Origin: Myxococcota bacterium | GTDB lineage: Bacteria; Myxococcota_A; UBA9160; JAFDDA01 | Assembly (NCBI GenBank): GCA_965228475.1 | Contig: OZ245817.1 | Span: 3,712,001-3,776,000 of the forward strand | DNA: 64,000 nt | Direction of reading: 5' to 3' | Part shown: positions 26,842-61,091 of the stretch, in pieces | Layout: every line of letters begins with the position of its first letter | How positions within the stretch are numbered: the stretch's first letter is position 1 | The notes under the pieces: model-generated | Told to the model about the DNA's origin: nothing | Databases searched by the model: none | The model's input: only the letters and a program-made list of their open reading frames with translations | Made by a program: the position numbers and the translations under genes

Positions 26842-26973
26842 GGCTTTCCTCGCGGGAACCCGAGCCCATGGTGGGCGTGCGGGGTGGCGCCGTCAACCGC
26901 GTTCCGGCTCTGGAGGGCCGGCGGATGGCCTTCCGTCGTGACTCCCCACACACCGGGCGACTATCCTCCGCAG

Positions 26974-32956: not shown

Positions 32957-33048
32957 GGGATCCTCCTTGCATGCCTTGCTTGGGGGGGAGGCACCTTCCC
33001 TGGCGCTCCCTGCATTCACGTCCGGCCAATCCGGATGTGGGGGGAAAG

Positions 33049-33064
33049 AGCAAGACGAGTGCCA
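33049..33064 (-). promoter_or_regulatory. Sigma54 -24/-12 promoter of flagellin
   Basis: TGGCAC-TCGTC-TTGCT, exact match to the consensus, about 90 nt upstream of the start. Confidence 0.8.
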
Positions 33065-33269
33065 GACACCGCACCCCTCGATCCAGAAAGCCCAGCACGC
33101 ACGGACGGGTTTCAAGACGAAAGACGTAGGGCTTTCGATGCGCCGCAACTGCCTGGGAAACACACGCTTTTCGTCGTGCAGGCGGTGCGCGCGGAGGCGG
33201 CGGCCGCGTTTCGATCTGAACGATCGTGCAACCTGAAACGCAGGGGCTTCGGTGGTATGGTCGCGCGCC

Positions 33270-35941: not shown

Positions 35942-37081
35942 TTACGGAGAGGTCTCGGCTGCGGCCTCGGGCGGCCCGGCCGAGGAGACTGCGGGAAGCG
36001 AGGCCGCAGCGGGCACCCAGACCAGGCTCGGAGCCGAAGCCGGCCGGAGCGGACGGGAAGCCGTCTCGGGGGTGGCGGCCCCTTCGCCCTGGTTCGTTTC
36101 GGCGTCGAAGTGGACCTGGCAGCGCAGGCCGGCGGGCAGACCGCGGTCGGGGTTGGGCAGATCGAGCTGGACGCCGAAGGTGCCGCTCGCGCCGTCGAGC
36201 ACCGGGTCCACGATGGCGACGCGCGCTTCGCGCTTCGCATCGAGCGGTGCCTCGGGCGTGATCTCGGCGCGGTCCCCCGGACGCATGCGCCCGAACCAGT
36301 CCGCCGGAAGGATCGCCTCCACGCGAAGCGGATCGATGCGGGCGATCTGGACGATCGTGTCGTCGTCGACCACTTCGCCGACGCCCCGGAGACGGTCGAT
36401 CACGACGCCGGAGACCGGCGCGCGAATCGTGCGGCGTTCTAGGTTGGCGCGGGCCTGCTCGAGCTGGAGGCCCGCGAGCCGGTGGTCTTCGCGTTCGCGC
36501 TCGAGTTCGAGCTCGGCGAGCTCGGCGTTCGCGCGGACTTCTTCCCGGGTGTCGAGGGAGAGGACGTCGCGCGAGAAGAGCTCCTCGGCGCGGTCGAGGC
36601 GCCGGCGGCTCAAGGCGAGCTGGGTCTGGCTCGCCGTGATTCCGTCGGTGCGCTCCGCCCGGGCCTGGGCGACGCGAAGGGCCGCCTCCTCGACGCTGGC
36701 TTCGAGCTTCGCAAGGACCTGGCCTTCTTCGACGTAGTCGCCGCGCTCCGCCGCGACCTCCGCGACCACACCGCTGACCGCGCTGCCGACGTCCACCATC
36801 TCGGTCGGCACGATCATGCAGTCGAAGGCACCGCCCTGCCCCGCCGCCGTCGACGCCGCCATCGATTGCGAGGGAGCCTGCCCGAGATCGTCGAGATCGA
36901 TTCCCGTCACCGTGCGCGGTTCGTCGGCCGTGCGCGCGACGGCCGGAGCGTTCTCCGGGACCGCCTCCTTGCGCGCAAAGCCCGGCATGAGCACGAGGCC
37001 GAAGCCGAGGAAGGCGGCCACGCCGCCGAGGGCCTTCAGGATCTGCTTGCGGCGGTCTTCTTTGGAAGTCGTCTCGTTCAT
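35942..37081 (-). CDS. Membrane fusion / periplasmic adaptor protein (HlyD/RND-MFP)
   Basis: One N-terminal TM, SGVVAEV..GDYVEEGQVLA lipoyl half, alpha hairpin, IRAPVSGVV, VDPVLDGASGT. Confidence 0.88.
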   Translation of the reverse strand: MNETTSKEDRRKQILKALGGVAAFLGFGLVLMPGFARKEAVPENAPAVARTADEPRTVTGIDLDDLGQAPSQSMAASTAAGQGGAFDCMIVPTEMVDVGSAVSGVVAEVAAERGDYVEEGQVLAKLEASVEEAALRVAQARAERTDGITASQTQLALSRRRLDRAEELFSRDVLSLDTREEVRANAELAELELEREREDHRLAGLQLEQARANLERRTIRAPVSGVVIDRLRGVGEVVDDDTIVQIARIDPLRVEAILPADWFGRMRPGDRAEITPEAPLDAKREARVAIVDPVLDGASGTFGVQLDLPNPDRGLPAGLRCQVHFDAETNQGEGAATPETASRPLRPASAPSLVWVPAAASLPAVSSAGPPEAAAETSP

Positions 37082-37102
37082 CGCCCTGGCTCGCTTCTTC
37101 GT

Positions 37103-39064
37103 TCACTCCCCCTGGCCCGAGAAGGCGAGCAACGCGTCGAGCTTGCGCTCCGCGTCGAGCAACCTTCGGCGGACCCGGGGCCCCCTGCGCTCTTCGGCGC
37201 GACGGAGCCAGTGCGTGAATCTCAAAGTGAAAGACCCGATGCCGGGCAGCGCGAGGCATGCGGCGATGGCGATGCGAAAAACACGCGGCAAGTTCGGTGC
37301 AAGCAGATCGCCGTCGAGGGCGACGATCTGTTCGCAGCTGCCCGGGGTCCCCTGTCGGGCGCAGCGCCCGAAGAGCTGGCGGTCGATGCGCAGCGACTCC
37401 CCGAGCTCCGTGGCGACGACCGCGAGCCCGCCGCGCTCCGCGACGCCGGGGCCGAGCCGGATGTCCGTCCCGCGGCCGGCCATCCGGGTCGCAACCGTGA
37501 TCCGCCCCGCCTCGCCGGCGGTGGCCACGAGCCCGGCCTCCTCCCGGTCTTGAACGGCGTTGAGCACGCGATGTTCGAGGCCGGCCGCGCCGAGCCGCGC
37601 GCTCAGCGCCTCGGAGGAGGCCACGCTGCACGTGCCCACCAGGACGGGGCGATGCTCGGCCCGGAGCTCGGCCGCGCGCTCGACGACCGCCTCCCACTTG
37701 GCCGCCTCATCGGGTAGGACGCGCAGCCCCCGATCGACGCGCCGGGAGGGCAGCCGGGTCGGGACGGCGACGGTCCGCAGGCGGTAGACGTTCCAGAACT
37801 CCTGGGCGACCTCGCGGGCGGTGCCCGTCATCCCCGCCAGCCGCAGGTAGCGGCGGAAGAAGCGCTGGTAGCTGATGCGCGCGACGGTCTCGCGGCGGGG
37901 CGTCGGCACGAGTCCTTCGCGGACCTCGAGCAGGGCCTGGATGCCGCCTTCGAAGCTCCGGTCGGGCGCGCGGCGGCCGGTGGGCAGGTCGATGATCTGC
38001 AATGCGCCCTCGTGGACCACGTAGTGACGCCCCCGCTCGAAGCTCGTCTCGGCGCTCAGCGCGCGTTCGACCCACGCCTCGCGCACGCGGCGGAGGGCCA
38101 GCGGGCCGTCCCGTGAAGCCGCGAGGGCGTCGAGGCGTGCGCGGCCGGCGTCGAGCAGCTCGACCCGGCCGCGGTCCACGGTGAAGTCCCGGCCTTCCTC
38201 GAGGCTGCGCGCCAGGAAGAGCGCCGAGAGAACGAGCGTCTCGTCGACGTCGGGGCCGGGCCTCGAGAGCAAGAGGGGCGTGCGGGCGTCGTCGATCAGG
38301 ACGGCGTCGGCTTCGTCGACGATCGCGAAGCAGAGGCCGCGCAGCACGGTCTGGCCGGGAGCTTCGGCGCCGAATTGCCCTGCAGCGGTGCCCGCGACCC
38401 GGTCCTGGAGGTAGTCGAAGGCGACCTGCTTGTGCGTCACGTAGGTGACGTCGCAGGCATAGGCCTCCCGGCGCGCGGACCGCTCGGGTTCGCTCTCGAG
38501 GGCCGCGCCCGAGGACAGCCCGAGGCGGGCATAGAGCGGGGCCATGCTCTCGGCATCGCGACCCACGAGATAGTCGTTCGCGGTGATCACGTGGACGGGA
38601 ATGCCGGCGAGCCCGGCCAGCGCCGCGGGAAGGGTCGCCGTGAGCGTCTTGCCCTCGCCGGTCTCGAGCTCCGCCAGGCCCCCGGACATCATCACGCGGC
38701 CGCCGAAGAGCTGGACGTCGTAGTGAGGCGTGCCGAGGGTCCGGCGTGCGGCTTCGCGCACGAGGGCGAAGCCGCGCGGCACGAGAGAACGGTCGAGGCC
38801 GCCGCGGCGCAGGCGACGCCGCAGGTCCGTCACGCGAATGTCGAAGGCCGCATCGGCGAGAGCCTCGAGGCCCTTTGCTTCCGCGTCGACGGCGGCGGCG
38901 AAGGCCTCGATCTCGGAGCGCTTCGCCTGGCGCGGCACCGCCGCGAGCCCGCGAAACCGATGGGCCAGGCGGGCGAGCCACGGCTCCTCGCGGTCCGGGC
39001 GCTCGGGCGCCGGCCCCCGTACCACGCCCGGGCGATCCACGAGCTGCGGCGCTGCGTCAGACAC
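37103..39064 (-). CDS. Secondary, truncated SecA-like DEAD ATPase
   Basis: YDVQ, ELETGEGKT, TANDYL, VDEAD, LAGMTGT, ATRMAGRGTDI, RIDRQLFGRCARQG; 653 aa, ends soon after NBD2. Confidence 0.9.
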   Translation of the reverse strand: MSDAAPQLVDRPGVVRGPAPERPDREEPWLARLAHRFRGLAAVPRQAKRSEIEAFAAAVDAEAKGLEALADAAFDIRVTDLRRRLRRGGLDRSLVPRGFALVREAARRTLGTPHYDVQLFGGRVMMSGGLAELETGEGKTLTATLPAALAGLAGIPVHVITANDYLVGRDAESMAPLYARLGLSSGAALESEPERSARREAYACDVTYVTHKQVAFDYLQDRVAGTAAGQFGAEAPGQTVLRGLCFAIVDEADAVLIDDARTPLLLSRPGPDVDETLVLSALFLARSLEEGRDFTVDRGRVELLDAGRARLDALAASRDGPLALRRVREAWVERALSAETSFERGRHYVVHEGALQIIDLPTGRRAPDRSFEGGIQALLEVREGLVPTPRRETVARISYQRFFRRYLRLAGMTGTAREVAQEFWNVYRLRTVAVPTRLPSRRVDRGLRVLPDEAAKWEAVVERAAELRAEHRPVLVGTCSVASSEALSARLGAAGLEHRVLNAVQDREEAGLVATAGEAGRITVATRMAGRGTDIRLGPGVAERGGLAVVATELGESLRIDRQLFGRCARQGTPGSCEQIVALDGDLLAPNLPRVFRIAIAACLALPGIGSFTLRFTHWLRRAEERRGPRVRRRLLDAERKLDALLAFSGQGE

Positions 39065-42920: not shown

Positions 42921-42994
42921 GCTGCCTGACTCCCCGCGCCGAAGGCGTTCCCCGAGCGGTTTCGGGGGCTTGCTTCGGGATCTGCCTGGGTTCG

Positions 42995-43022
42995 TTTTCG
43001 GCGCAACAAACGGCCTGCTTGA
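42995..43022 (-). promoter_or_regulatory. Putative sigma28-type promoter of the export operon
   Basis: TCAAG-N15-GCCGAAAA on the minus strand. Confidence 0.6.
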
Positions 43023-43080
43023 CCGCTGCCTGTGAGGGGAATTCCCGTGGCTTTTCAGAGAGTTCGGGACATTCCGCCCG

Positions 43081-43108
43081 TCAAGGCGCGGGGCCGACGC
43101 CCCGATGA
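43081..43108 (+). promoter_or_regulatory. Putative sigma28-type promoter of the giant protein gene
   Basis: TCAAG-N15-CCCGATGA, about 40 nt before the start. Confidence 0.6.
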
Positions 43109-43146
43109 GATAGGGACCCCCGGTTCCGCGGGGATGGGAGAGGTGG

Positions 43147-46100
43147 ATGATGAGGCGCCGGCGCGCCGGTTCGGGCGCAGGCAGAGCACGACGTGCGCGC
43201 GTCGAGGCCCTCGAGCCGCGCATCCTGCTCTCGGCGGACTTCCCGGGCCTCGAGGCCCTGCTCGCTCCGGAGGAGACGGCGCCCCTCGAGCTCCGGATGC
43301 CGGAGACGGACGCCTCGCCGCAGCTCGAGCAGAGCGTCCGGCGCGAACTCGTCTTCATCGACCCGCGGGTCGAGAACGCCGACGCGCTGATCGCGGACCT
43401 GACCTCGAGGAACGATCGCGAGCGGCGGATCGAGGTCGTCACTCTCGACGCCGCGCGCGACGGAGTCGCCCAGATCCGCGACGTGCTCGCTCGATCGGAG
43501 GAACCGGTCGACGCCGTGCACGTGGTCTCCCACGGCACCGACTCGGGCTTCCAGCTCGGCGCGACCTGGCTCACGCGCGACAACGTCGCCGATCACGCAG
43601 ACTCCCTCGCCCGCTGGAACGAAACGCTCGCCGAGGACGCCGATCTCCTCCTCTACGGCTGCAACCTCGCCTCGGCCCCGGACGGCCAGGCGCTCGTCGG
43701 CAGCCTCGCCCGCCTCACCGGCGCCGACGTCGCGGCCAGCACCGACCTCACCGGCTCGGCCCGGCAGGGCGGCGACTGGGAGCTCGAGTACACCGAGGGC
43801 CGCGTCGAGAGCACGGTGGCCTTCTCGGCCCAGGCGCGCACGAGCTGGGCGGGCTTGCTCGACGGCACCGCGATCTGGGCCCAGAACGGGCAGACCACAC
43901 CCCTCACGAGCGCCTTCGACGGAACGAGCTTCGGTCCCACCGGGCCCACCGTCGACGTCGGCCACGAGTGGAACGTGATCGCCGGCGCCGAATCGCCGGA
44001 CCGCGACGAGGCCATCGTCGCCGGCATCGGGGACGACGGCAACCTCGTCGGAATGGTCTGGGACGGAACCGCCTGGACCACCAGCGATCCGCTCGGAATC
44101 GGGGTCCCGAACATCACGGAAACCGAGCGCTGGGCAATCGACGTGACCTACGAATCGGCAAGCGGGGACGCGATTCTGGTTTGGAGCTCAGGGAGCACGC
44201 AGATCCTGGGCCAGGAGATCTGGTACGCGACGTGGAACGGAACGAACTGGAGCCTCCCGAAGGGATTGAACGCTCCGGCCGGGGTCGAGATCAACCAGAT
44301 TCGACTCGCCTCCAACCCCAACAGCGACGAGGTCGTGCTGGTTGCCAGCAACGAGGACTACGAGGACTACGCCTTCGTCTGGGACGGCTCGAACTGGGGC
44401 AACGCGATCACCCTGCACGACGGCAACAACGTGCCCGACAACCAGGACGTCCAGATCGTCTACGAGCAGCAATCCGGCCACGCGATGGCCGTCTGGGCGG
44501 AGAACAACCCCAACCTCCGGTACCGGATCTGGGACGGGGCGAGCTGGAGCGCGGAACAAAACCTGACGAAGCCGGGCGGCGTCAACGGCAAGGTCATCTC
44601 GATCGCGGTCGCCGCCGACCCGACCAGCGATCGCATCGTCCTCGGCGCGGTCACCGAAGACAACGAGACCTGGCTCGCCGCCTGGGACGGAGGCAGCTGG
44701 GACCCTTCCGTCCTGGCCACCTCGGACAGCCCCCACACGGACCGGCTGGGCGTGGCGGTCGCCTTCGAGAGCACGAGTGGCGAAGCCCTCGCCGCCTACG
44801 CGACGACGGCGGACGAGGTGCGGTTCCGGACGTGGAGTACGGGCGGTGGGTGGTCCGGGGAAAGTGTTGGGCCCGACATCGGTGCCCAGCCGAACGTACT
44901 CACGCTCGACGCGGATCCGGAATCCGATTCGATCATGCTCTCGGTCGTCGCGGACGACCGGGACATCTGGTTCGCTCACTGGGACGGCGGCTCCTTCGTC
45001 TCCGCGACGGAGCTCGAGACCGACGCCACGACGAACGCCGGCCAACCCTTCCTGTTCCTCTGGGACGCCGGCGAGACCGCACCCAATACCGCCCCGGTCC
45101 TCACACCCGGCGGGGCTGCCCTCACGGGCATCGACGAAGACGACCTGGCGAACGGCGGCGATCTCGTCTCGGCCATCGTCGGCGCGGCCATTGCGGACCC
45201 CGACGGGGGCGCCGCGGAGGGGATCGCGATCTTCGGGCTCGCCAGCGGCAACGGAACCTGGGAATACTCGACGACGGGTGGGGTCTCCTGGAACGCCGTC
45301 GGCGCGGTCGACCCGACGAATGCCCTCGTCCTCCGCTCGACGGACCGGGTGCGCTTCGTCCCGGACGGCGAGAACGGCACGAGCCCTTCCTTCGACTTCC
45401 GCGCCTGGGACCAGACCGACGGGAGCAGCGCCGGCGACAAGGTCGACGTCACCACGAACGGTGGCACCTCGGCCTTTTCCGCAGCGAGTGATACCGCCAC
45501 GATCGCCGTTGCGAGCGTGAACGACGCGCCCGTGCTCGCCCCGGCTTCACCGGCCCTCGCCGGGATCGCCGAGGACGACCTCAACAACGCCGGAGACCTG
45601 GTCTCGGACCTGCTGGGCGGAACCCTGAGCGACGTCGATGCCGTCACCCTGCAGGGCATTGCGATCACGGCCGTCGCGAGCGGCAACGGCACGTGGCAGT
45701 TCTCGACGAACGGTGGCGGCGCTTGGAGCAACGTCGGCGCCGTGGATGCGAGCAACGCCCTGCTCCTGCGCTCGACGGATCGCGTGCGCTTCGTCCCCGA
45801 TGGCCAGAACGCCGATACGGCCTCCTTCGACTTCCTCGGCTGGGACCAGACCTCGGGCGCCTTCGGCACGAAGGCCGACGCCAGCACCACCGGCGGCACG
45901 ACCGCCTTCTCGGACGACGCCAACACGGCCACCGTCACGGTGACGGCGACCAACGATGCCCCCGTCCTCGCGGCGGCCACGCCCTCCCTCACGACCATCG
46001 ACGAAGACGAGACCGGGAACCCGGGGGACCTGGTCTCGGACATCCTCGGCGGTTCGGTGACGGACGGCGACGCCGGTGCGCTCCAGGGCATCGCCATCAC

Positions 46101-49100: not shown

Positions 49101-51111
49101 CGACACCGTCGCGGACATCGCCGGCGGAGCCATCACCGACGCCGATGCGGGTGCCGTCGAGGGCATCGCCATCACCTCCCTCGTGAGCGGCACCGGGACC
49201 TGGCAGTTCTCGCTGAACGGCGGCGTCGACTGGAACGCGATCCCCGCCGTCAGCAACGCCAACGCCCTCCTGCTGCGTGCCACGGACCGGGTCCGCTTCG
49301 TCCCGGACGGCCAGAACGCCACGAACCCCTCCTTCACCTTCCGCGCCTGGGACCAGACGTCCGGGCTCGCGGGGAACCAGGTGGACGCGGGCGCCGGCGG
49401 CGGAGCCAGCGCCTTCTCCGCGGCGACCGACGTGGCGACGATCGCGGTGACCGACGTCAACGACGCGCCGACCCTCGCCCCGGGTGCCCCCTCTCTCGGC
49501 GTGATGACCGAGGACGCCGGCGCGACCCCGGGAACCCTCGTCGGGACGGTGCTCGGCGCCTCGATGAGCGACATCGACGCCGTCGCCCCGGAAGGCATCG
49601 CGGTGACCGCCCTCTCCGGCGCGAACGGCACCTGGGAGTTCTCCACCAACGGCGGCGCTTCCTGGAACGCCATCGGTTCGGTCGCCGCCAACAACGCCCT
49701 GCTCCTCCGCGACACCGATCGGATCCGCTTCCGCCCCAACGGCACGAACGGGACGGCCGCGACCCTCGGCTACCACGCGTGGGACCAGAGCACCGGTGCC
49801 GCCGGCATCAAGACCAACGCCTCGGTCCGAGGCGGCACGACCGCCTACTCGACCGCCGGCGACACCCTCCAGCTGACGGTCTCGAGCGTCAACGATGCGC
49901 CGAGCATCGGAGGGGCGACCCTGGCTTCGGTGCCCGGCGGAACGGCCGACCCGCCGGGCGCGAGCGTCGCGGGACTGTTCGGCCCGACCCATGCCGATGT
50001 CGACGCCGGCGCGAGCTTCGCCGGCATCGCCGTCGTCGGAAACGGCGCCAACGCAGGCACCGAAGGCACCTGGCAGTACTCGACCGACTCGGGTGCGAAC
50101 TGGTTCGACGTCGGCACGGTGGCCGACGGTGCGACGGCGCTCGCTCTGCCGTCGACGTCCCTGCTCCGCTTCGTTCCCGCCGCGGGGTTCGAAGGCGAGC
50201 CGGCCTCGCTCTCGGTCCGGAGCCTCGACGACACCTTCGCCGGCGCGTTCTCCTCGACCGCCGGTGGCACCGAGAGCCGACAGTTCGCCGACACGACGGG
50301 CGCCGGAGGCACGAGCGCGATCTCCGGCAACGTGGGCAGCCTCGCCACGATGATCGGGGAGGCGGAGCCGCCGCCCGAACCGCCGCCGGCTCCGCCGCCC
50401 GACCTCGAGCCGCCGGAACCCGGAGAGGATCCCGAGCCCGAGGAGGAACCGGAACCCGAACCCGAGGAGACCCCCGAGCCCGAAACCCCGGAGCCGGGCG
50501 ACTCCGGCGCCCTCCCCGGGGATGGGATCATGCCCCCGCCCCTGGATTCGGAAGAGGATGCACCGCCCGCGCCCGAACTCGCCCCGCCGGCGCCCGTCTA
50601 CTCGATCGACACCGACCTCGATGAAGGCGGCACGGACGGAGACCCGGGAACCCGGCCGGGCGACGACTCCTTCCGGCGCGGACCGCGCGAAGCGGCCGGC
50701 GACCGCGTCGAGTTCCGTCAGCTCACCATCGAGACGGTCCGTAACCTCTTGAACGGCGGGTTCGACTTCCTCTCCGAGGGGGCCGGCCTGCTCGAGGAAC
50801 TCGACCGCTTCAAGGAAGAGGCCGAGGTGAAGACGCTGATCGAGAACGCGGTCGCCGGCTCGAGCGCGGCCGTGAGCGCCGGCCTCTCCCTCGGCTACGT
50901 CGTCTGGCTGACGCGCGGGGGCCTGCTCCTCGCGAGCTTCGCCTCCTCGATGCCCGCCTGGCGCCTGGTCGACCCGATCCCGATCCTCGCGAGCCTCGCG
51001 GTGCAGCAGGAGGGTGAGGACGAGTCCCTCGAGAGCCTCGTCGACGCGAGCGCCGAAGAAGATTCCGATGGCGAGGCCGGGCGGCCGAAGAGCCAGGGCG
51101 AGGTCCACTGA
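43147..51111 (+). CDS. Giant (2654 aa) repeat-rich surface protein, putative adhesin
   Basis: LEPRILL leader; DUF4347-like region (ELVFID..VVSHG..LLLYGC..DVAAS.D.TG..GGDWELE); WDG repeats; NDAP-bounded repeats; LamG-like (WHHVA..YIDG..LDD.RVY.RALT); Pro/Glu linker; C-terminal hydrophobic motif. Confidence 0.92.
45085..50352 (+). repeat. Intragenic domain repeats: 8 of about 145-160 aa and 2 of about 121 aa
   Basis: Long units start at NxAP at 45085, 45520, 45952, 46378, 46855, 49027, 49459, 49891 (GIA..GTW.YS..GG.W..RFVP..FRAWD pattern); short units at 48301 and 48664 ([24 protein letters not shown]). Confidence 0.85.
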
Positions 51112-51113
51112 CC

Positions 51114-54100
51114 ATGCGCCCGATCGGAGCCACCACCCACATCGCCCTCGGCCAGACGCTCCTGCTGCTGAGCGTCCTGCTGGCCGCGCTGCTGATCGGC
51201 CTCGTGCCCGACCGCGAGGCGGCCCTGCGCGAAGGACGGACCGCCCTGGCCGAGTCCGTCGCCATCCAGGCCTCGGCGCTGGTCACGCGCTCGGACCGCC
51301 TCGCCCTCGAAGCCACGCTGCGCGCCACGGTCTCGCGCAACGAGAGCCTCCTCTCCGCCGCCCTGCGGCGCCAGGATGGCGTCGCCCTCGTCCGCGTGGG
51401 CGAGCATGACGCACGCTGGGACGACTCGACCGGCGAGGTCTCGACGGCGACCCAGATCGTCGTCCCGATCTGGTCGGCCGGGCGTCGCTGGGGCCGGATG
51501 GAGCTCCGCTTCGCACCGCTTGCCACCGGGGGGTTCCTCGGCGCCGCGAACAGCCCGACGGCAAAGCTCTTCGCCTTCATCGCCCTCGGAAGCTTCGCCG
51601 TCTTCTTCTTCTACCTGCGGAAGATGCTGCGCCACCTCGACCCCTCCCAGGCCGTGCCGCCGCACGTCCGCTCGGCGCTCGACACGCTCGCCGAGGGTCT
51701 GCTCGTGATCGACATGAAGCAGAACGTGGTGCTCGCGAACCAGGCCTTCGCCGAGCTGCTCGGCGAGCGGCCGGAGGAGCTGCTCGGCCGCAACGCCTCG
51801 GAGCTCGATTGGCACCGGCCCGAGGGCATGCTCGAGGAGGAGCCCTACCCCTGGCTGCGCGCGCTCTCGGAGGGCTGCCCCCAGCGCAACGACCTGATCC
51901 TGTTCCGGAACCCCGAGGGCGAGCTGCGGACGTTCCTCGTGAACTGCTCCCCCGTCCTCGGGAGCGGCGGCGAGTACGGCGGCGTGCTGATCAGCCTCGA
52001 CGACGTGACCCAGCTCGAGGAACACAAGGTCCAGCTGGCCCAGGCGAAGGAAGAGGCGGAGGCCGCGAACCAGGCGAAGAGCGACTTCCTCGCCAACATG
52101 AGTCACGAGATCCGCACGCCGATGAACGCGATCCTCGGCTTCACGGACGTTCTGCGCCGCGGCATGGGCAAGAGCGAGGCCGATCGGCAGAAGCACCTCG
52201 AAACGATCCATGCGAGCGGCGAGCACCTGCTCCAGCTCATCAACGACGTGCTCGACCTCTCGAAGGTCGAGGCCGGACGGCTCGAGGTCGAGCGCATCCC
52301 CTTCGCGCCGCATCTGCTCGTTCAGGAAGTGGCAAAGGTGCTCGGCGTGAAGGCGCGCGAGAAGGGTATCGGCCTCGACGTCGAGTTCAGCGGCGTCATC
52401 CCCGAGACGATGACCTCGGACCCGACGCGCCTGCGCCAGATCGTCACCAACCTGCTGTCGAACGCCATCAAGTTCACGGAGCAGGGCGGCGTCACGGTCC
52501 GCGCGCGGCTCGATCGGGAGGGCCCGGAGCCGGCCTTCGTGCTCGACGTCGCCGACACGGGCGTCGGGATGCCGCCCGAGGCGCTCGACTCGATCTTCGA
52601 GGCCTTCGTCCAGGCGGACACCTCGGTTACGCGGAAGTTCGGCGGCACCGGCCTCGGCCTCGACATCAGCCGCCGCTTCGCCCGCCTGATGGGCGGCGAC
52701 ATCACCGTCACGAGCGAAGTCGGGCGCGGCAGCACGTTCACCGTCCGCCTCGACCCGGGCCCCCTCGAGGAGGTCCGGCTGCTCGATCCGGAAGAAGCGC
52801 AGGCCGCGACGGCGAAGGCCGACGCGGAGGAAGACGGACACTGGGTCTTCCCCTCGCGGCGGATCCTCGTGGTCGACGACGGCGACGAGAACCGCGAACT
52901 CGTCCGGCTCGTCCTGAACGAGGCGGGCCTCGAGGTCGCCGAGGCCGAGAACGGCCAGGTCGGCGTCGACCGCGCCTGCGCCGAGCGCTTCGACCTCATC
53001 CTGATGGACATGCAGATGCCCGTCATGGACGGCTACACGGCGACGGCGACGCTCCGCGAACGCGGGCACGACCTCCCGATCCTCGCCCTCACCGCCAACG
53101 CGATGAAGGGCTTCGAAGAGAAGTGCCTCGATGCCGGTTGCAGCGGCTTCCTGACCAAACCGATCGACATCGACCTCCTGCTGGCGACGCTGGCCGAACG
53201 TCTGGGTGGCGAACGCCGGCCCGGGCCGGCACCGGGCAGCGTGCCTCCGGCGGAGACCGCGGACGCCGCCGCGTCCGAACCGGCGCTCGGGCCGATCGTC
53301 TCGCGCCTCGCCGGGAACCCGAAGCTGCGGCCGACGATCGAGAAGTTCACGGTACGCGTGGCGGAGCAGCTCGACGCCATGGACGCCGCCCTCACGGCGG
53401 CGAACTTCGAGGCGCTCGCGGGCCTCGGACACTGGCTGAAGGGTGCCGGCGGAACCGTCGGGTTCGATGCCTTCACCGAGCCGGCCAAGCGCTTCGAAGA
53501 CCTGGCCCGCGAGAACGATGCCGCGGGGCTCGGGCCGGTGCTCGCCGAACTCCGAGCGCTCGCGGGACGCATCGTCGTCGACCCGGCGCCGGCGACGGCG
53601 GGCGCACCGCTCGTCTCCCGACTGGCTGGCAACCCGAAGCTCCTCCCGACGATCGAGAAGTTCGCGACGCGGATCCAGGAGAAGATCGAAGCGATGCAGG
53701 CCGCGCTCGACGCGGCGGACTTCGAGACCCTGGCCGGCCTCGGGCACTGGTTGAAGGGCGCCGGGGGTACGGTCGGCTTCGACGCCTTCACCGAGCCCGG
53801 CAAACGGCTCGAGGAGCTCGCCCGCGCCGGGCAGGCAGCGGCCCTCGCCGACGTGCTCGCGGAAGTCCGGGCTCTCGCGAGCCGCATCTCGACCCGCCCT
53901 GCGGACGACACCTCTCCGCCCCAGGAGCCGATCGCGACGAGCGGCCCTGCGACGGTCACGGCGCAAACCGCCCCGCCGCTGGCCGAAGGACCCGTCGTCT
54001 CCCGGCTTGCCGGAAACGCCAAGCTCCGCCCCACGGTCGAGAAGTTCGTCGCGCGCCTCGCCCAGCGGCTCGAGGCGATGGAGTCGAGCCTGGCGGAACG

Positions 54101-54293
54101 GGACTTCGAGGCGCTGGCGGGCCACGCCCACTGGCTCAAGGGCGCCGGCGGCACCGTGGGCTTCGATGCCTTCACCGGCCCCGCCGCCGTTCTCGAGCAG
54201 CAGGCCCGGGCCGGCAAGGCCTCCGAGATCGAAGCGACGATCGCCGATCTCCGCAGCCTGGCGGACCGGATCGAACTGGAGCCTTCCCCCTAG
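51114..54293 (+). CDS. Membrane hybrid histidine kinase: 2 TM, PAS, HisKA, HATPase, REC, 3x Hpt
   Basis: [41 protein letters not shown], three [11 protein letters not shown]. Confidence 0.93.
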
Positions 54294-54326
54294 AACCCGC
54301 GTGCTCCGGTCCGGGTCGCGCGTCCC

Positions 54327-54355
54327 TCAAGTCGGCGCGCCCCGTTGGCCGAAAA
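54327..54355 (+). promoter_or_regulatory. Putative internal sigma28-type promoter
   Basis: TCAAG-N16-GCCGAAAA, spacer one nt longer than in the other copies. Confidence 0.5.
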
Positions 54356-54396
54356 GCACCCAGGGGACGCGCGGTCCCCGGAGAGAAGCCGAGACG

Positions 54397-55206
54397 ATGT
54401 CCCAGGGAAACGTGGCCGCCGCCGAAGACGCGCAGGCCTTCCAGAGCGCCACCATCGTCGTCGTCGACGACGAGCCGACCACGGTCGAGATGATCGAGAT
54501 GTTCCTCGAGGCCCAGGGCTACGAGAACGTCGTGGCGCTCTGCGATTCTTCGAAGGCGGTCGAGACGATCCGCCGGTCGAAGGCAGATCTCGTCCTGCTC
54601 GACCTGATGATGCCGGACGTCGGCGGCCTCGACATCCTGCGAACCCTGGCGGCGGACGAGGTCCTCTCCTCGATTCCCGTCGTGATCTTCTCCTCGACGA
54701 CCGACCGCGAAGCCAAGCTCGAAGCGCTCGAACTCGGTGCCGCCGAGTTCCTCGCCAAGCCCGTCGACCCGAGCGAGCTCGCCCTCCGCGTTCGCAACAC
54801 CCTCGCCTACCGCGCCTACCAGCAGCGCTTCGGCCACAAAAAGGGCGCCGCCCATCTGCTCGATCGCATGGACCGTGCCCTGCGCCGGAGCGGCCCGATG
54901 ATCCGCTCCCGGCTCGGGAGCGACCCGCGCTACCGCCCCACGATCGAGCGCTTCGTCGCGCGCCTCGACGAGCGCCTCGACTGGATGGAGAAACGCCTCG
55001 AGAACGAGCAGTTCGAAGAGCTCGCCACCCTCGCCCACTGGCTGAAGGGCTCCGCCACCATGGTCGGCTTCGAAGCGTTCTCCGAGCCGGCGGACACGCT
55101 CGAGATCCTCGCCAAGAAACAGCGCACCGAAGAGGCACAGGAAGTCCTCGAAGAGCTCCACTCCCTCGCGGAGCGCATCGTGGTGGACGACGGCACCGAT
55201 GACTGA
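54397..55206 (+). CDS. REC-Hpt phosphorelay protein
   Basis: VVDDE, LLDLMMP, FLAKP; C-terminal HWLKGSATMVG. Confidence 0.88.
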   Translation: MSQGNVAAAEDAQAFQSATIVVVDDEPTTVEMIEMFLEAQGYENVVALCDSSKAVETIRRSKADLVLLDLMMPDVGGLDILRTLAADEVLSSIPVVIFSSTTDREAKLEALELGAAEFLAKPVDPSELALRVRNTLAYRAYQQRFGHKKGAAHLLDRMDRALRRSGPMIRSRLGSDPRYRPTIERFVARLDERLDWMEKRLENEQFEELATLAHWLKGSATMVGFEAFSEPADTLEILAKKQRTEEAQEVLEELHSLAERIVVDDGTDD

Positions 55207-55966
55207 TCGCGCCCCCGTCGAAGAAGCCGTGCTCGAGAGCCTGAAGGCCGCGCGGATCCTGATGGTCGACGACGAGCCGACCACGCTCGACGTCCTCGAG
55301 ATGTTCCTCGAAGCCGACGGCTATCTCGAGATCGTGAAGCTCTGCGATCCGGGCAAGGCCCTCGAGACCGTGGTCCGGATGGACCCGGACATCGTCCTGC
55401 TGAACCTGATGATGCCCGAGGTGTCGGGCCTCGACGTGCTCGAAGCCATGCGGGCGAACGAGGCGGTGCGCGACATCCCCGTCGTGATCATCACCGGCTC
55501 GGGCGACCCCGAACAGAAGCGCAAGGCGCTCGAAGCGGGCGCCAGCGACTTCCTCGGCAAGCCCGTCGACCCGAGCGAGCTCACGCTCCGCGTAAGGAAC
55601 CTCCTTGCCACGCGGCCGTTCCGGGAGGGCGCCGAGTTCGTTCCGTCGAAGCCGTCCGCGAGCGACGGCCCCTTGTCCGAGGAGCGCGTTCGCCGGATCG
55701 TGGAGACGTTCCTCGACCGCCTGCGCCCGCGCCTCGACGAGATGGACGCCGCCCTGGCCTGCCAGGACTTCGTCACGCTCGCGGAGCTGGCCCACTGGCT
55801 GAAGGGCTCCGCGGGAACCGTCGGGATCCACGACTTCACGGAACCCGCCGAGTCGCTCGAGGAGAGCGCCCGGGTCCAGGATGCACTCGGCTGCGGCACC
55901 GCGATGCGCACCCTGCGCCAGCGCCTCGAGCGTGTCGACGGCCGCCAGGAGTCCACGCCGTGCTGA
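55199..55966 (+). CDS. Pseudo-REC (Asp to Asn) + Hpt protein
   Basis: MVDDE, LLNLMMP, FLGKP; HWLKGSAGTVG. Confidence 0.85.
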   Translation: MTDRAPVEEAVLESLKAARILMVDDEPTTLDVLEMFLEADGYLEIVKLCDPGKALETVVRMDPDIVLLNLMMPEVSGLDVLEAMRANEAVRDIPVVIITGSGDPEQKRKALEAGASDFLGKPVDPSELTLRVRNLLATRPFREGAEFVPSKPSASDGPLSEERVRRIVETFLDRLRPRLDEMDAALACQDFVTLAELAHWLKGSAGTVGIHDFTEPAESLEESARVQDALGCGTAMRTLRQRLERVDGRQESTPC

Positions 55967-57711
55967 ACCAGGCGCGCGAGGGAACCAGCGAACCGGCCGA
56001 TTGCACCATCATGATGGTCGACGACGAGTCGACCACGCTCGACGTGATCGAGGCCTTCCTCCAGGGCGAGGGCTACGAGCGGTTCGTGATCGTCGAAGAC
56101 TCGCGCGAGGCCATGGACCAGGCCGAGCGGAACCTGCCGGACGTCATCCTCCTCGACCTGATGATGCCCCACGTCGGCGGGCTCGAGATCCTCGAGCAGC
56201 TCCGCGCGCACCCGAGGCTGAAGCGCACGCCGGTGCTGATCCTCACTTCGGCCACGGACCCCGAGACGAAGCTCAAGGCCCTCGAGCTCGGCGTGAACGA
56301 CTTCCTCGCCAAGCCGGTGGACGCGAGCGAGCTCGCCCTCCGGCTCCGCAACACGCTGACCGTGAAGGCACACCAGGACCGGCTGACCTACTACGACGGC
56401 CTGACGGGGCTTCCCAACCGCCTGCGCTTCACCGAGTGGCTCGACGAGTTCCTCGCCGGGCGGGCCGAGTCCGATGCGAACGCCGCCGTCTTCCACCTGC
56501 GGCTCGGCCGACTCCAGGAGATCTCCGACGCCTTCGGCCGCCCGGCGAGCCACGAGGCCCTGCGCATCGTCGCCGACCGCCTCCACGCGAGCCTCCAGCC
56601 GGGCGAGATCATGGGGAACCCCAACGCCCCCGAGCTACAGATCCTCTGCCAGGCGGGAGAAGGCGAGTTCCTGATCCTCCTCGAGGAAGCGGGCGACCCG
56701 GAGCGCGCCGCGCGCATCGCACGCCACGTCCTCGACCAGCTCAAGATCCCGGTCAACATCGGCGGCGAGGAGCTCATGGTGACGGGGCACCTGGGTGTCA
56801 CGCTCATCCCCGACGACGGCGAAGACGCCGAGACGCTGCTCGACAACGCGAGCCTCGCGCTCTCGCACGCCCAGGGCCTCGGCGGTTCGGGCTTCCAGTT
56901 CCACGACGAGACCCTGAACGCCGAGACCCGCGAGCGGCTCCACCTCGAGAGCCTCCTGCGCGGCGCCGTCGAGCGCGAAGAGGTCCACCTGCACTACCAG
57001 CCGAAGGTCGACGTCGAGAGCGGGCGGGTGGTCGGCGCCGAAGCGCTCATGCGCTGGCACAGCCCCGTGCTCGGCCAGGTCCCGCCCGACCGCTTCATCC
57101 CCGTCGCGGAGGAGTCGGACCTCATCGTGCGCCTCGGCTCCTGGGCCATTCGCACCGTCTGCTGGCAGATCCGCACCTGGCTCGATGCCGGCCTCCCGCC
57201 GATCTGCGTCGCGGTGAACGTCTCGAGCAAACAGTTCCGCACGGGCGACCTCGCGAGCGTCGTGCGCTCGTCGCTCGAAGACTTCCGTCTCGAAGGCCGG
57301 CACCTGGTGATCGAGCTGACCGAGAGCATGATCATGGAAGACCCCGCGGAGACCGCGCGCATCCTCGATGGCCTGAAGGCGCTCGGCGTCGCGATCTCCC
57401 TCGACGACTTCGGCACCGGGTACTCCTCGCTCAGCAACCTGAAGCGCTTCCCGATCACCGAGCTCAAGATCGACCGCTCCTTCGTGAAGGGCGTGCCCGA
57501 CGATTCGGACGACGCCGCCATCACCGCCGCGGTGATCGCGATGGGGCACGCGCTCGGGATGCGGCTCGTCGCCGAGGGCGTCGAGACCGAGGCCCAGGTC
57601 GACTTCCTGCGTGAGCGCGGCTGCGAGATCTACCAGGGATTCCTCTGCAGCCGGCCCCTGGCGGCCACGGACTGGCCGATGCTGCTCAGTCAGCTCGGCA
57701 CCGAAGACTGA
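55960..57711 (+). CDS. REC-GGDEF(degenerate)-EAL protein, probable c-di-GMP phosphodiesterase
   Basis: LLDLMMP; DGLTGLPNR but GEGEF; EAL, VNVS, ELTE, DDFGTGYSS, KIDRSF, EGVET, QG intact. Confidence 0.9.
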   Translation: MLNQAREGTSEPADCTIMMVDDESTTLDVIEAFLQGEGYERFVIVEDSREAMDQAERNLPDVILLDLMMPHVGGLEILEQLRAHPRLKRTPVLILTSATDPETKLKALELGVNDFLAKPVDASELALRLRNTLTVKAHQDRLTYYDGLTGLPNRLRFTEWLDEFLAGRAESDANAAVFHLRLGRLQEISDAFGRPASHEALRIVADRLHASLQPGEIMGNPNAPELQILCQAGEGEFLILLEEAGDPERAARIARHVLDQLKIPVNIGGEELMVTGHLGVTLIPDDGEDAETLLDNASLALSHAQGLGGSGFQFHDETLNAETRERLHLESLLRGAVEREEVHLHYQPKVDVESGRVVGAEALMRWHSPVLGQVPPDRFIPVAEESDLIVRLGSWAIRTVCWQIRTWLDAGLPPICVAVNVSSKQFRTGDLASVVRSSLEDFRLEGRHLVIELTESMIMEDPAETARILDGLKALGVAISLDDFGTGYSSLSNLKRFPITELKIDRSFVKGVPDDSDDAAITAAVIAMGHALGMRLVAEGVETEAQVDFLRERGCEIYQGFLCSRPLAATDWPMLLSQLGTED

Positions 57712-60982: not shown

Positions 60983-61042
60983 CGCGCCGCACCCGCCCTC
61001 GGGCTTCCACTCCCCCGGGGCCCCGATTCATCCGGTCTTTCC

Positions 61043-61070
61043 TTTAGTTGCGGACCGTCCCTGCCGATGC
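61043..61070 (+). promoter_or_regulatory. Putative sigma28-type promoter
   Basis: TTTAG-N15-GCCGATGC, followed by GGAGG and the ATG at 61092. Confidence 0.55.
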
Positions 61071-61091
61071 GTGAAGCGGAGGTGCGTACCC

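Follow-up and report, generated by a model that had tools for sequence, protein, structure and literature searches.

The type I systems for giant RTX adhesins are HlyB-HlyD-TolC and LapB-LapC-LapE with LapD/LapG. Canonical SecA uses its two-helix finger, wing and C-terminal tail at SecY, and SecA2 in Gram-positives delivers clients to SecYEG. CPDs have Leu-Leu/small-residue cleavage sites, with the domain just downstream. A "secondary SecA_DEAD" locus was described computationally by Kamneva, Poudel & Ward (2015, PLoS One, PMC4452313), which bears out the comparative genomics of secondary SecA_DEAD genes beside membrane-fusion protein (MFP) genes mentioned in the first-pass annotation of the DNA studied here. 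That locus has the same four gene types (GAF-HlyD, Peptidase_M50-HlyD, SecA_DEAD without wing/scaffold, and HlyD/Biotin_lipoyl), sometimes with an OEP gene nearby and, as here, without an ABC transporter. Its authors hypothesized that SecA_DEAD gives ATPase activity, with the M50 membrane protein as a possible pore, and called the module's biological role completely unknown; the available text of the paper names no cargo, with zero occurrences of adhesin, cadherin, DUF4347, HemolysinCabind, PqqD or cargo. Because SecA replacing the ABC ATPase and an M50 pore were proposed in 2015, the "hybrid machine" idea of the first-pass annotation is not new. Giant proteins of the "Chlorochromatium aggregatum" epibiont carry an N-terminal LEPRxLL motif, have sapC and tolC neighbours, and share a co-expression cluster with a horizontally acquired secA (bioRxiv 10.64898/2026.03.19.712371). 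The authors of that preprint describe these giants as lacking known transport signals and favour a SapC/TolC/HlyD route, C-terminus first; its available text does not mention an M50-HlyD/GAF-HlyD cassette.

The window analysed here is a 64,000-nt stretch of a Myxococcota bacterium genome (GCA_965228475.1, contig OZ245817.1, positions 3,712,001-3,776,000, forward strand). A minus-strand operon at 35942-42920 (the cassette; Table 1) encodes an HlyD adaptor, a SecA paralog, a PqqD-like/M50/HlyD fusion and a GAF-HlyD adaptor; these four genes are tightly packed, with junctions of a 21-nt gap, an 8-nt overlap and a 0-nt gap. Profile searches confirmed the three HlyD-like modules, M50 peptidase and SecA-like ATPase first read from the sequence, and the operon is indeed divergent from the gene for a giant LEPR-XLL/DUF4347 protein (the cargo), followed by kinase, Hpt and EAL genes. 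The sigma-70 consensus had no match in 42921-43146, a search that is uninformative at 70% G+C. A mechanical 796-aa ORF from TTG 43583 was rejected for GAF-HlyD because it overlaps the giant gene, and GTG 42920 was therefore taken as the start.

Table 1. Features of the cassette, the cargo gene and the adjoining signalling genes.
Feature	Position	Strand	Details
Third periplasmic adaptor (HlyD/RND_mfp type), 379 aa	35942..37081	-	HlyD_D23 2.2e-17, HlyD_3 4.4e-17
Truncated SecA paralog, 653 aa	37103..39064	-	SecA_DEAD 5e-92, P-loop_SecA 4.8e-42, SecA_PP_bind 1.6e-11
Three-part fusion, 711 aa	39057..41192	-	HlyD_3 1.4e-8; Peptidase_M50 18.7 bits, below 27.2 cut-off
GAF-HlyD adaptor, 575 aa	41193..42920	-	HlyD_3 5e-17, GAF 1.9e-5; RND_mfp 102.1 bits, above cut-off
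Divergent intergenic region, cassette/cargo gene	42921..43146	.	226 bp
Cargo, 2654 aa	43147..51111	+	LEPR-XLL, DUF4347 6.3e-53, Laminin_G_3, cadherin-like domains
N-terminal leader, residues 1-66	43147..43344	+	NF012209 match 43198-43239
DUF4347 domain, residues 68-238	43348..43860	+	Pfam 6.3e-53; invariant H129, C172
C-terminal hydrophobic/amphipathic motif, residues 2579-2614	50881..50988	+	Also in the DUF4347-class cargos of L035 and L062
Hybrid sensor kinase	51114..54293	+	PAS, HisKA, HATPase_c, REC, three Hpt stretches (Pfam)
RR-Hpt protein 1 (REC + Hpt)	54397..55206	+	ATG at 54397; Pfam
RR-Hpt protein 2 (REC + Hpt)	55199..55966	+	Overlaps neighbours by 8 and 7 nt
REC-GGDEF-EAL protein	55960..57711	+	GGDEF motif = GGEEL; EAL, DDFGTG intact

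Our best reading is that the cassette would be a leader-guided, TolC-linked machine for export and processing. It belongs to the "secondary SecA_DEAD / type-I-related" module, whose clients in this reading start with a LEPR-XLL leader, here the adjacent adhesin-like protein; we put the probability that it works as proposed at roughly 55%.

In Pfam scans, 26 further window ORFs were free of ABC, RND and OEP domains, consistent with the initial description of a window that lacks an ABC transporter, RND pump and TolC. Nor is an ABC transporter a regular part of homologous loci; among 80 related loci, five have weak NBD matches only, at inconsistent positions. The host genome encodes five ABC exporters, all below type I cut-offs, and no protein in it matches the type I HlyD model better than GAF-HlyD of the cassette itself, which scores 50.8 bits where 208.65 are required; based on these profile cut-offs, a type I ABC/HlyD pair is not recognisable in the genome. 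A genome search for canonical secA and tolC, suggested with the first-pass annotation, found a separate 934-aa SecA and five TolC-type genes, all outside the window. SapC and OEP genes, like the neighbours of the epibiont giants, adjoin the cassette in 8/80 and 6/80 related loci, respectively.

The cassette has HlyD/MFP adaptors and a TolC-family exit in common with type I RTX-adhesin systems; its cargo is likewise giant, acidic, Cys-poor and repeat-rich, with c-di-GMP genes beside it and putative proteolysis near its N-terminus. However, no ABC transporter is encoded in the locus, and none in the genome exceeds the type I cut-offs; the clients of the cassette are marked by a conserved leader at the N-terminus, where type I clients have a C-terminal signal. 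The cassette also has three different adaptors, with the M50 protease and the SecA paralog as inner-membrane and cytoplasmic parts. The third adaptor exceeds the NCBIfam RND_mfp cut-off (125.2 bits against 94.9), has an N-terminal membrane helix at residues 14-32 based on a hydropathy scan, and has a homolog following the cassette in 57/80 related loci. GAF-HlyD consists of a cytoplasmic GAF region, one membrane helix (residues 309-327, hydropathy) and a periplasmic HlyD module; it is present in 75/80 loci, the remaining five being uninformative.

In a sample of 401 genomes of the host's phylum, M50-HlyD occurs in 19 and LEPR in 14, all 14 inside the 19, and LEPR was found in none of the 382 cassette-negative genomes; in 300 Gammaproteobacteria, LEPR occurs in 16, an M50-HlyD match in 29 and both in 14 (related genomes in these samples are not independent). 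The host genome carries a single cassette and, beside it, its sole LEPR-XLL protein and sole DUF4347 protein, which are one and the same, the cargo. Among cultured genomes, four of five have a LEPR match that starts a 7974-9838-aa ORF ending at the cassette, and Amphritea and Neptuniibacter each have two cassettes, every one beside its own LEPR protein. A LEPR N-terminus was identified in 22 of the 80 related loci, and 19 more have an ORF of at least 1000 aa that continues beyond the upstream edge. The cargo-cassette link is well supported: the early suggestion that the giant protein belongs with the operon holds genome-wide (14/14 LEPR-positive genomes in the phylum sample, 14/16 in Gammaproteobacteria), and the two usually adjoin. 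Three observations count against leader-guided export: LEPR occurs in 2/271 cassette-negative Gammaproteobacteria; five phylum-sample and 15 gammaproteobacterial cassette-positive genomes have no LEPR match; and in two of five genomes with a cassette and no adjacent giant, LEPR was not found.

The cargo is acidic, Cys-poor and of surface type, with one Cys in 2654 residues. A hydropathy scan identified no 19-residue window at Kyte-Doolittle ≥1.6 anywhere in it, as expected from the initial report of a giant without a Sec h-region. Its leader consists of a basic stretch, a 13-residue core and an acidic disordered linker. The LEPR-XLL model NF012209 matches residues 18-31 (22.4 bits against a cut-off of 17), and in an alignment of 25 leaders E20, E23, R25 and A30 are conserved at ≥90%. 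AF2 gave residues 1-59 pLDDT <50 and left the leader undocked on DUF4347, which counts against leader-guided export. The claim that RTX repeats are absent stands for this cargo, which has one GGxGxD match (shuffles average 0.3) and no HemolysinCabind match in Pfam, but fails for the family, where many of the related cargos are giants of the RTX type, and since RTX repeats usually accompany C-terminal type I signals, this too counts against leader-guided export. A C-terminal motif, with a 17-residue and a 12-residue segment and followed by an acidic tail, is common to the DUF4347-class cargos of two related loci (L035 and L062) and was not found in the RTX-type giants compared. DUF4347 was likewise not found in RTX-type LEPR giants, and in the M50-HlyD tree a 40-row clade (support 97) holds RTX giants without a DUF4347 cargo.

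The fusion comprises a cytoplasmic PqqD/RRE-like domain (residues ~25-96), an M50 membrane core of site-2-protease type that carries HELGH and NPLLRFDG, and, at ~443-711, a periplasmic adaptor of MexA/AcrA type. The HExxH and NPLLRFDG motifs are invariant in 13 homologs (H207, E208, H211, N303, D309), and PqqD was detected in 11 of the 13. AF2 modelled the fusion at pLDDT 82.1 with a beta-beta-beta-alpha-alpha-alpha N-domain, which matches PqqD 3g2b_A by profile (E 0.0017), and Foldseek returned MexA/AcrA/MacA matches (E around 1e-12). Based on profile and model, the N-terminus is a putative PqqD/RRE-like leader-binding domain; with the intact M50 catalytic motifs, this indicates a role in leader recognition and cleavage at least as strongly as a channel role. 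No site-2 protease is known to act as a protein-conducting channel, which counts against leader-guided export.

Among curated models, the fusion comes closest to two RiPP leader proteases, the daptide HExxH protease NF041824 (1.6e-46, 159.1 bits; residues 1-395 cover 357/379 model positions) and YydH/LiaK NF058609 (1.3e-7). Together with PqqD/RRE domains, which are typical of RiPP pathways, and LEPR ORFs down to 116-174 aa in one genome (G411), this would suit a RiPP-like or small-peptide export system with the giant gene merely a frequent neighbour. However, both matches fall below cut-off (300 bits for NF041824), no RiPP-modifying enzyme family recurs among 801 clustered neighbour ORFs (of 90 aa or more) of the 80 loci, and the LEPR-XLL proteins that co-occur with the cassette are mostly 1000-16790 aa long; we regard such a system as very improbable. 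Leader-guided export shares its logic with peptidase-containing ABC transporters and RRE-guided RiPP leader proteases, in which a dedicated domain recognises an N-terminal leader and a protease that is part of the export apparatus cleaves it. The cassette differs in the fusion of its protease to a periplasmic adaptor, in clients thousands of residues long and in the lack of an ABC domain.

The SecA paralog has NBD1, the preprotein cross-linking domain, NBD2 and ~65 further residues. Aligned to B. subtilis SecA, it spans residues 17-549 and keeps the GEGKT, VDEAD, TGTA and GRGTD motifs, but has no helical-wing domain, two-helix finger or C-terminal tail; it falls below the cut-off of every NCBIfam SecA/SecA2 model. 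It is present in 67/80 related loci and in 17 of the 401 phylum-sample genomes, all 17 within the 19 M50-HlyD carriers and with the paralog adjoining M50-HlyD. Nine of the 80 loci form a SecA-less subtype; of five such genomes searched, three (G007-G009) have canonical SecA only, so ATP-driven feeding by the paralog is not essential to the core. The paralog is an accessory, and the core machine cannot depend on it as an obligatory motor. Thus, of the early claim that a SecA motor replaces the ABC ATPase, the absence of an ABC transporter stands and the obligatory motor does not.

Like SecA2 ATPases (TIGR03714, TIGR04221, TIGR04397, NF012136), the paralog is a second SecA-family ATPase for a small client set, and that precedent, the retained ATPase motor and cross-linking domain, and a canonical SecA that could serve SecA-less systems would fit a role in bringing LEPR-XLL proteins to housekeeping SecYEG, with adaptors and TolC taking the protein from the periplasm and M50 as leader peptidase. 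We consider this distinctly unlikely, as the paralog lacks the finger, wing and tail, the leader has no hydrophobic core (best 12-residue window in residues 1-70, 1.04), and a protein of 2654-8000 aa would need to be kept from folding in the periplasm. Whereas SecA2 proteins work with SecY2/Asp proteins, the paralog is found in diderm bacteria, where its operon partners are adaptors; it scores far below cut-off on all SecA2 models and ends shortly after NBD2.

The AF2 core of the cargo DUF4347 (pLDDT 84-97) matches Tce1, itself named a DUF4347 protein (9qpe_G; VIA Z 13.1, rmsd 2.7 A, 148 residues), and CHAT (Z 9.3), and H129/C172 align with the Tce1 His186/Cys240 dyad, which has been superposed on the TcdB dyad (PMC13323088). 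By this modelling, the domain adopts a CPD-like cysteine-protease fold of clan CD, and its invariant His/Cys dyad lies shortly past the leader. It resembles Tce1, of the T6SS effectors Tce1/Tce2 (PMC13323088; PDB 9qpe), in fold and dyad, albeit at 20% sequence identity and a profile E-value of 0.024. As in the autoprocessing CPDs of TcdB/TcdA and MARTX, it lies just past a conserved Leu-Leu/small-residue site, a putative cleavage site.

The kinase gene starts 2 nt past the cargo stop codon. An ORF at 54345-55202 was rejected as being in the wrong frame, the real gene there being RR-Hpt protein 1. From its motifs, the REC-GGDEF-EAL protein is probably a phosphorelay-controlled c-di-GMP phosphodiesterase. 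HK or GGDEF-EAL genes occur in 11/80 related loci with differing gene orders; the proposed joining of the export locus to a c-di-GMP phosphorelay therefore applies here and recurs, but only in this minority of loci.

The c-di-GMP genes coupled to the cargo, its protease-like domain next to the leader, RTX repeats in related cargos, the SecA-less subtype, and M50 motifs typical of proteases rather than channels could also indicate a processing or retention device. The cargo would then cross the envelope by another route, and the cassette's part, governed by c-di-GMP, would be limited to docking, clipping or releasing the cargo N-terminus at a scaffold linked to TolC, like LapD/LapG-LapA. This is unlikely: neither an ABC exporter nor an HlyD of the host genome passes the type I cut-offs, the cargo lacks a Sec-type hydrophobic region, three adaptors with OEP adjacency in six loci would be lavish for a protease scaffold, and 67/80 loci include a dedicated ATPase with a preprotein clamp.

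For leader-guided export, we infer the translocation mechanism, including leader binding, transport direction, channel, cleavage sites and regulatory logic, as follows. The PqqD/RRE-like domain would capture the unstructured leader with its 17-residue stretch, and the shortened SecA paralog, as motor and preprotein clamp, would feed the long, unfolded, Cys-poor polypeptide N-terminus first, in contrast to the C-terminus-first route suggested for the epibiont giants (10.64898/2026.03.19.712371). Passage across the inner membrane would be through an assembly of M50 membrane cores with membrane helices contributed by the three adaptors, and the MexA/AcrA-type adaptors would provide a periplasmic duct onto a TolC-family channel encoded elsewhere. 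Leader removal would fall to the site-2-type metalloprotease, to the CPD-like DUF4347 of this cargo class, or to both; DUF4347 may cleave behind the conserved LL. Export or surface retention would be tuned via c-di-GMP by the GAF domain and by the co-transcribed phosphorelay, whose last member is the EAL phosphodiesterase.

The hybrid secretion machine first proposed for this locus retains its giant, operon-linked cargo and the lack of a routine ABC transporter, but not the paralog as obligatory motor. Beyond what was described in 2015, our analysis ties the module to LEPR-XLL cargo and to c-di-GMP genes, identifies an RRE-like domain in the fusion and a CPD-like one in the cargo, and recognises a SecA-less subtype. 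The cassette and its adjoining giant look like an experimentally unstudied export route for such proteins.

Domain scans confirmed the gene content that the first-pass annotation had described, namely a cassette of four minus-strand genes that is divergent from a gene encoding a giant protein (hereafter, the cargo), which our scans place in the LEPR-XLL/DUF4347 class. The region is ~70% G+C and lies within a 5.0-Mb single-contig genome. Within the cassette, the junctions are, in order, a 21-nt gap, an 8-nt overlap, and 0 nt. A promoter scan found no sigma-70 consensus site in the divergent region, a result that is uninformative at 70% G+C. The annotation had also described the window as free of ABC transporters, RND pumps, and TolC, and the giant protein as lacking a Sec h-region and RTX repeats; we detected no ABC, RND, or OEP (TolC-type outer-membrane) domain in the 26 other ORFs scanned, and the cargo has no Sec-type hydrophobic segment. 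In type I secretion, the energizer is an ABC transporter of the HlyB/PrtD/LssB type, whereas none is encoded in the window. Type I substrates carry an uncleaved C-terminal signal and RTX repeats; in contrast, the conserved element of the cargo is N-terminal, and the protein contains a single GGxGxD match and no HemolysinCabind domain.

Features of the locus and its surroundings (positions within the window)
Feature	Position	Strand	Basis or remarks
1346-aa ORF	5121-9161	+	C-terminal half is a tail-specific (S41) protease; ~700 N-terminal residues without Pfam match; mechanical start may be too far upstream
1080-aa ORF	23816-27058	-	Partial DUF3604 match only
Flagellin gene	32138-33271	-	2.7 kb from the cassette, amid unrelated metabolic genes
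HlyD-type adaptor (third adaptor)	35942-37081	-	Domain profiles
SecA paralog, 653 aa	37103-39064	-	Domain profiles
M50-type membrane protease fused to HlyD module (M50-HlyD), 711 aa	39057-41192	-	Domain profiles
GAF-HlyD protein	41193-42920	-	Domain profiles
Divergent intergenic region, 226 bp	Between cassette and cargo gene		
Cargo, 2654 aa	43147-51111	+	LEPR-XLL, DUF4347, Laminin_G_3, cadherin-like; Pfam/NCBIfam
C-terminal motif of cargo	50881-50988	+	GYVxWLxRGGxLL...SSxPAWxxxDPxPxL and acidic tail
Hybrid kinase, three Hpt stretches	Starts 2 nt past cargo stop codon	+	
Rejected ORF	54345-55202		Wrong frame; no Pfam or NCBIfam match
RR-Hpt (REC-Hpt)	54397-55206	+	Paralog of 55199-55966 gene; fills gap after kinase
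RR-Hpt (REC-Hpt)	55199-55966	+	
REC-GGDEF-EAL protein		+	Last of the relay genes; EAL and DDFGTG intact; GGDEF motif is GGEEL
779-aa ORF	60681-63020	+	High GC3; no Pfam family

The locus truly belongs to a module known from computational description only (Kamneva 2015): a SecA_DEAD protein without wing or scaffold occurs in addition to a canonical SecA, and its partners are GAF-HlyD, Peptidase_M50-HlyD, and HlyD/Biotin_lipoyl proteins, with no ABC transporter. The authors of PMC4452313 already remarked on the missing ABC transporter in 2015, proposed that the SecA_DEAD protein supplies the ATPase activity, suggested that the M50 membrane protein might form a pore, and termed the biological role of the module unknown. 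The mechanism put forward in the first-pass annotation, with a SecA motor and an M50 channel, is already in print. The 2015 paper mentions no cargo, adhesins, DUF4347, or PqqD. Our literature search found no follow-up of the 2015 module, and in the portions of the sources available, LEPR-XLL or LEPRxLL was nowhere tied to the cassette. Four points go beyond the published record that we found: the assignment of the cargo, the logic of leader recognition, the accessory status of SecA, and the predicted protease nature of DUF4347.

It is quite probable that the cassette and LEPR-XLL proteins work together. The LEPR-XLL model (NF012209) matched the cargo with 22.4 bits in hmmscan (cut-off 17) and with 29.2 bits in the genome search; within its own genome, there is one cassette, one LEPR-XLL match above the cut-off, and one DUF4347 protein, all adjoining. 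Among 401 genomes scored in the window's phylum, 19 carried M50-HlyD and 14 carried LEPR-XLL; all 14 LEPR-positive genomes had an M50-HlyD match, LEPR-XLL was found in 0 of the 382 genomes without one, and 5 cassette-positive genomes had no LEPR match. In Gammaproteobacteria (300 genomes scored, one not scorable), M50-HlyD was detected in 29, a number that includes weak 214-250-bit relatives and the unpublished genome G556 (used for no other claim), and LEPR-XLL in 16; here, 14 of the 16 LEPR-positive genomes carried M50-HlyD, LEPR-XLL occurred in 2 of the 271 genomes without a match, and 15 cassette-positive genomes had no LEPR match. Because related genomes are not independent and metagenome-assembled genomes are incomplete, these counts are associations rather than statistics. 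Together with adjacency in the window's own genome and in related ones, this genome-wide co-occurrence upholds the earlier proposal that the giant is the client of the cassette.

The best 80 of 379 confirmed related loci in reference genomes span Alpha-, Beta-, and Gammaproteobacteria, Myxococcota, Thermodesulfobacteriota, Nitrospirota, Campylobacterota, Bacteroidota, and Spirochaetota. The recurrent gene order is GAF-HlyD, M50-HlyD, SecA-like, and HlyD, with GAF-HlyD present at 75 of the 80 loci (the other 5 being uninformative) and the third adaptor at 57. With a motif pattern that we widened after reading the actual N-termini, a LEPR-type N-terminus was in view at 22 of the 80 loci, including all 16 DUF4347 neighbors. 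At 19 further loci, an ORF of at least 1000 aa runs off the upstream edge, and those of these ORFs that were scanned encode giants of the RTX, PKD, Laminin-G, or Calx-beta type. In four of five cultured genomes, the LEPR match opens an ORF (7974, 8215, 9838, and 8696 aa) with its 3' end abutting the cassette; in the fifth, the match is on a different contig. Of five genomes in which the cassette has no giant beside it, three had LEPR proteins elsewhere, and none were found in the other two. Amphritea and Neptuniibacter have two cassettes each, every one beside its own LEPR protein. Cultured, non-pathogenic carriers include Neptuniibacter caesariensis MED92 (two cassettes), Marinobacter suaedae (SecA-less type), Amphritea sp. 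HPY (both types), and Methylobacterium extorquens AM1, which PMC4452313 names. The system's clients are not necessarily giant: in one genome (G411), nine LEPR-XLL matches lie in open frames of 116-5174 aa.

The C-terminal motif of the cargo recurs in the DUF4347-class cargos of two related loci from distant taxa (L035 and L062), and no Pfam family covers it; this motif might anchor the protein in a membrane or direct its sorting. At three other loci (L056, L071, and L050), the upstream RTX-type LEPR giants terminate with SGW(A/I/G) and then a tail rich in Lys or Arg, an ending that resembles a C-terminal sorting tag.

The family of the M50-HlyD fusion is very large and uniform in length, with at least 5796 proteins at E ≤1e-10 among 8000 candidates scored. 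Across 13 aligned members, HELGH and NPLLRFDG do not vary. The residues expected of a site-2 (M50) protease, which has HExxH in a membrane helix and an NxxPxxxxDG-type third-ligand motif, are likewise invariant in 13 sequences (H207, E208, H211, N303, and D309), with a score of 18.7 bits to the Pfam Peptidase_M50 model (gathering threshold, 27.2). The predicted structure (pLDDT 82.1) consists of three strands and three helices, a helical membrane core, and then an adaptor, for which Foldseek returned MexA, AcrA, and MacA at ~1e-12. In the N-terminal domain, the topology of the model is E25-30, E33-39, E46-49, H51-58, H66-80, and H84-96. PF05402 (PqqD) was detected in 11 of 13 fusion homologs (E value for the fusion encoded in the window, 0.012). 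A profile built from 24 N-domains matched the PqqD structure 3g2b_A (E value, 0.0017) over residues 13-94 of 95. Based on these profiles and the model, the N-domain is PqqD/RRE-like and is predicted to bind peptides. In RiPP pathways, PqqD-like domains serve to bind the leader, and RiPP leader proteases are the nearest curated models for the fusion, albeit with scores below their cut-offs. The Gammaproteobacteria sample also contains a second tier of M50-HlyD-like proteins of ~700 aa (214-250 bits; for example in genomes G471, G494, G554, G558, G643, G687, G690, and G695), mostly without LEPR matches; these proteins may form a sister family that serves other clients.

AlphaFold2 predicted residues 1-59 of the cargo as disordered and residues 61-200 as confidently folded. 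The best structural match of DUF4347, by a wide margin, was PDB 9qpe chain G (Z 13.1, rmsd 2.7 Å over 148 residues), which is Tce1, named a DUF4347 protein by its depositors; a CHAT protease (Z 9.3) came second, and further clan-CD enzymes appeared among generic alpha/beta folds. Foldseek alone returned mostly generic flavodoxin-like matches, and the Tce1/CHAT signal was clear with VIA-align and profile alignment. In the profile alignment, H129 of the SHG motif and C172 of the YGC motif align to His186 and Cys240 of Tce1, the pair that the Tce1 paper (PMC13323088) superposes on the TcdB dyad. Neither cargo residue varies across 13 cargos, and the 2654-aa protein has no cysteine other than C172. 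DUF4347 is thus predicted, from sequence and modeled structure, to have a clan-CD, CPD-like cysteine-protease fold (caspase-like alpha/beta) with a His...Cys dyad at the ends of adjacent strands. In MARTX and clostridial toxins, the CPD cuts its own chain behind a leucine that lies a short way upstream of it. The invariant core of the leader ends in LL-SAD, ~40 residues upstream of DUF4347, and by analogy the cargo may cleave itself at this LL; in the AlphaFold2 model, the leader is not docked into the active site of DUF4347. The RTX-type LEPR giants have no DUF4347, so leader removal there would fall to the M50 protease.

The SecA paralog aligns only to residues 17-549 of Bacillus subtilis SecA, and it retains the Walker A, DEAD-like, TGTA, and GRGTD motifs as well as the preprotein cross-linking domain. 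As just ~65 residues follow NBD2, the helical wing, two-helix finger, and C-terminal tail are missing. The protein scores below the cut-off of every SecA/SecA2 model (best, 483.9 bits vs. 814; SecA2 models, 309.9-439.5 bits vs. 725-1100). A canonical SecA of 934 aa is encoded at a separate locus of the genome, outside the window. In a stricter first look at the phylum sample, the short paralog (458-775 bits, full length) occurred in 17 genomes, all among the 19 that are M50-HlyD-positive, and each adjoins M50-HlyD; the other matches listed are canonical SecA at ≤360 bits.

Among the 80 related loci, a SecA-like gene is present at 67, absent at 9, and uninformative at 4. Canonical SecA alone was found in three of five searched genomes whose cassette is SecA-less. 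The first-pass annotation held that SecA takes the place of the ABC ATPase; the absence of the paralog from nine loci, with only canonical SecA in three of five such genomes, makes it accessory and qualifies that model. The paralog is not the obligatory energizer, and it is plausibly a feeder for very long substrates. Where visible, the cargo of SecA-less cassettes is DUF4347-class (complete cargos, 1638-1716 aa), whereas SecA-containing cassettes mostly lie beside larger cargos (2548-16790 aa), with two possible exceptions. We rejected a strict size rule, in which SecA-less cassettes would have cargos of ~1600-1900 aa and SecA-containing cassettes larger ones, in favor of a tendency: ORFs of 1495 aa (genome G061) and 1112 aa (G278), which may be incomplete, adjoin SecA-containing cassettes.

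In a tree of 78 M50-HlyD sequences, five SecA-less cassettes share one well-supported clade. The RTX giants fall within a 40-row clade (support 97) that is free of DUF4347-class cargo; such cargo is found only among 38 rows of the tree. Clustering of labels on the tree is modest (4 changes vs. 6.2-6.3 in shuffles; 28 of 500 shuffles were as low). Cassettes from different phyla are intermixed on the tree, a pattern expected of a mobile module. One SecA-less cassette (L051) lies inside the otherwise SecA-containing 40-row clade, a position that suggests an independent loss of SecA.

Homologous loci do not routinely carry an ABC transporter: NBD matches occurred at just 5 of the 80, all weak and in varying positions. 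The five ABC exporters of the window's genome scored best to MsbA-type models and reached 298-348 bits against the HlyB model (cut-off, 725.55). Each of the three adaptors in the cassette has an HlyD fold, with only the generic RND_mfp model passed; against the type_I_hlyD model (cut-off, 208.65), their best score was 58.3 bits, and the top match in the genome search was the cassette GAF-HlyD at 50.8 bits. OEP genes number five in the genome, all outside the window, and at 6 of the 80 related loci one is adjacent to the cassette. This last count rests on clustering of neighbors, with Pfam run on two members, since TBLASTN with the genome's own OEP proteins recovered one of the six loci. SapC-family genes (PF07277) lie beside the cassette at eight of the 80 loci (L014, L033, L073, L075, L078, L081, L086, and L091), and the two members checked against Pfam matched with E values of 4.2e-72 and 1.5e-72. 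According to a preprint on Chlorochromatium (bioRxiv 10.64898/2026.03.19.712371), sapC and tolC flank LEPRxLL giants, a horizontally acquired secA falls within the giants' co-expression cluster, and the authors, who describe the giants as having no known transport signals, ascribe their export to SapC, TolC, and an unlinked HlyD. The pairing of SapC with LEPRxLL giants is thus reported for Chlorochromatium as well as seen at the cassette loci.

As proposed earlier, a c-di-GMP phosphorelay lies next to the giant, and the genes from the cargo through the kinase and the two RR-Hpt proteins to the EAL protein have the appearance of a single operon. With the second REC-Hpt gene, the relay would consist of a hybrid kinase with three Hpt stretches and two RR-Hpt proteins before the output, an unusually large number of phosphotransfer steps to precede a REC-GGDEF-EAL protein. 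The RR-GGDEF-EAL protein scored 115.8 bits against the LapD model (cut-off, 1020). Kinase or GGDEF-EAL homologs flank 11 of the 80 related loci, in arrangements that differ relative to the cassette and cargo, and this recurrence supports a functional connection in some of the systems. That the GAF domain senses nucleotides is conjectural.

We lean slightly toward the cassette itself being the exporter, as modeled here. The full reading is tentative, and we give it a probability of roughly 40%: a distinct diderm pathway in which proteins with an N-terminal LEPR-XLL leader would be exported through three adaptors and a TolC-type exit, without an ABC transporter and with an optional boost from a wingless SecA, and in which the CPD-like protease of DUF4347-class cargo would cut after the leader Leu-Leu and detach the adhesin under c-di-GMP control. 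Such a pathway bears on the export of LEPR-XLL-tagged proteins whose length runs from thousands into tens of thousands of residues, and its clients, if the reading is true, include some of the largest bacterial proteins known. With a defined leader and a defined client, the function of the module becomes testable by ordinary genetics in harmless carriers that are in culture. If confirmed, the pathway would represent a protein-export route without an ABC transporter or a classical signal peptide, and DUF4347 would gain a role as a cargo-borne protease.
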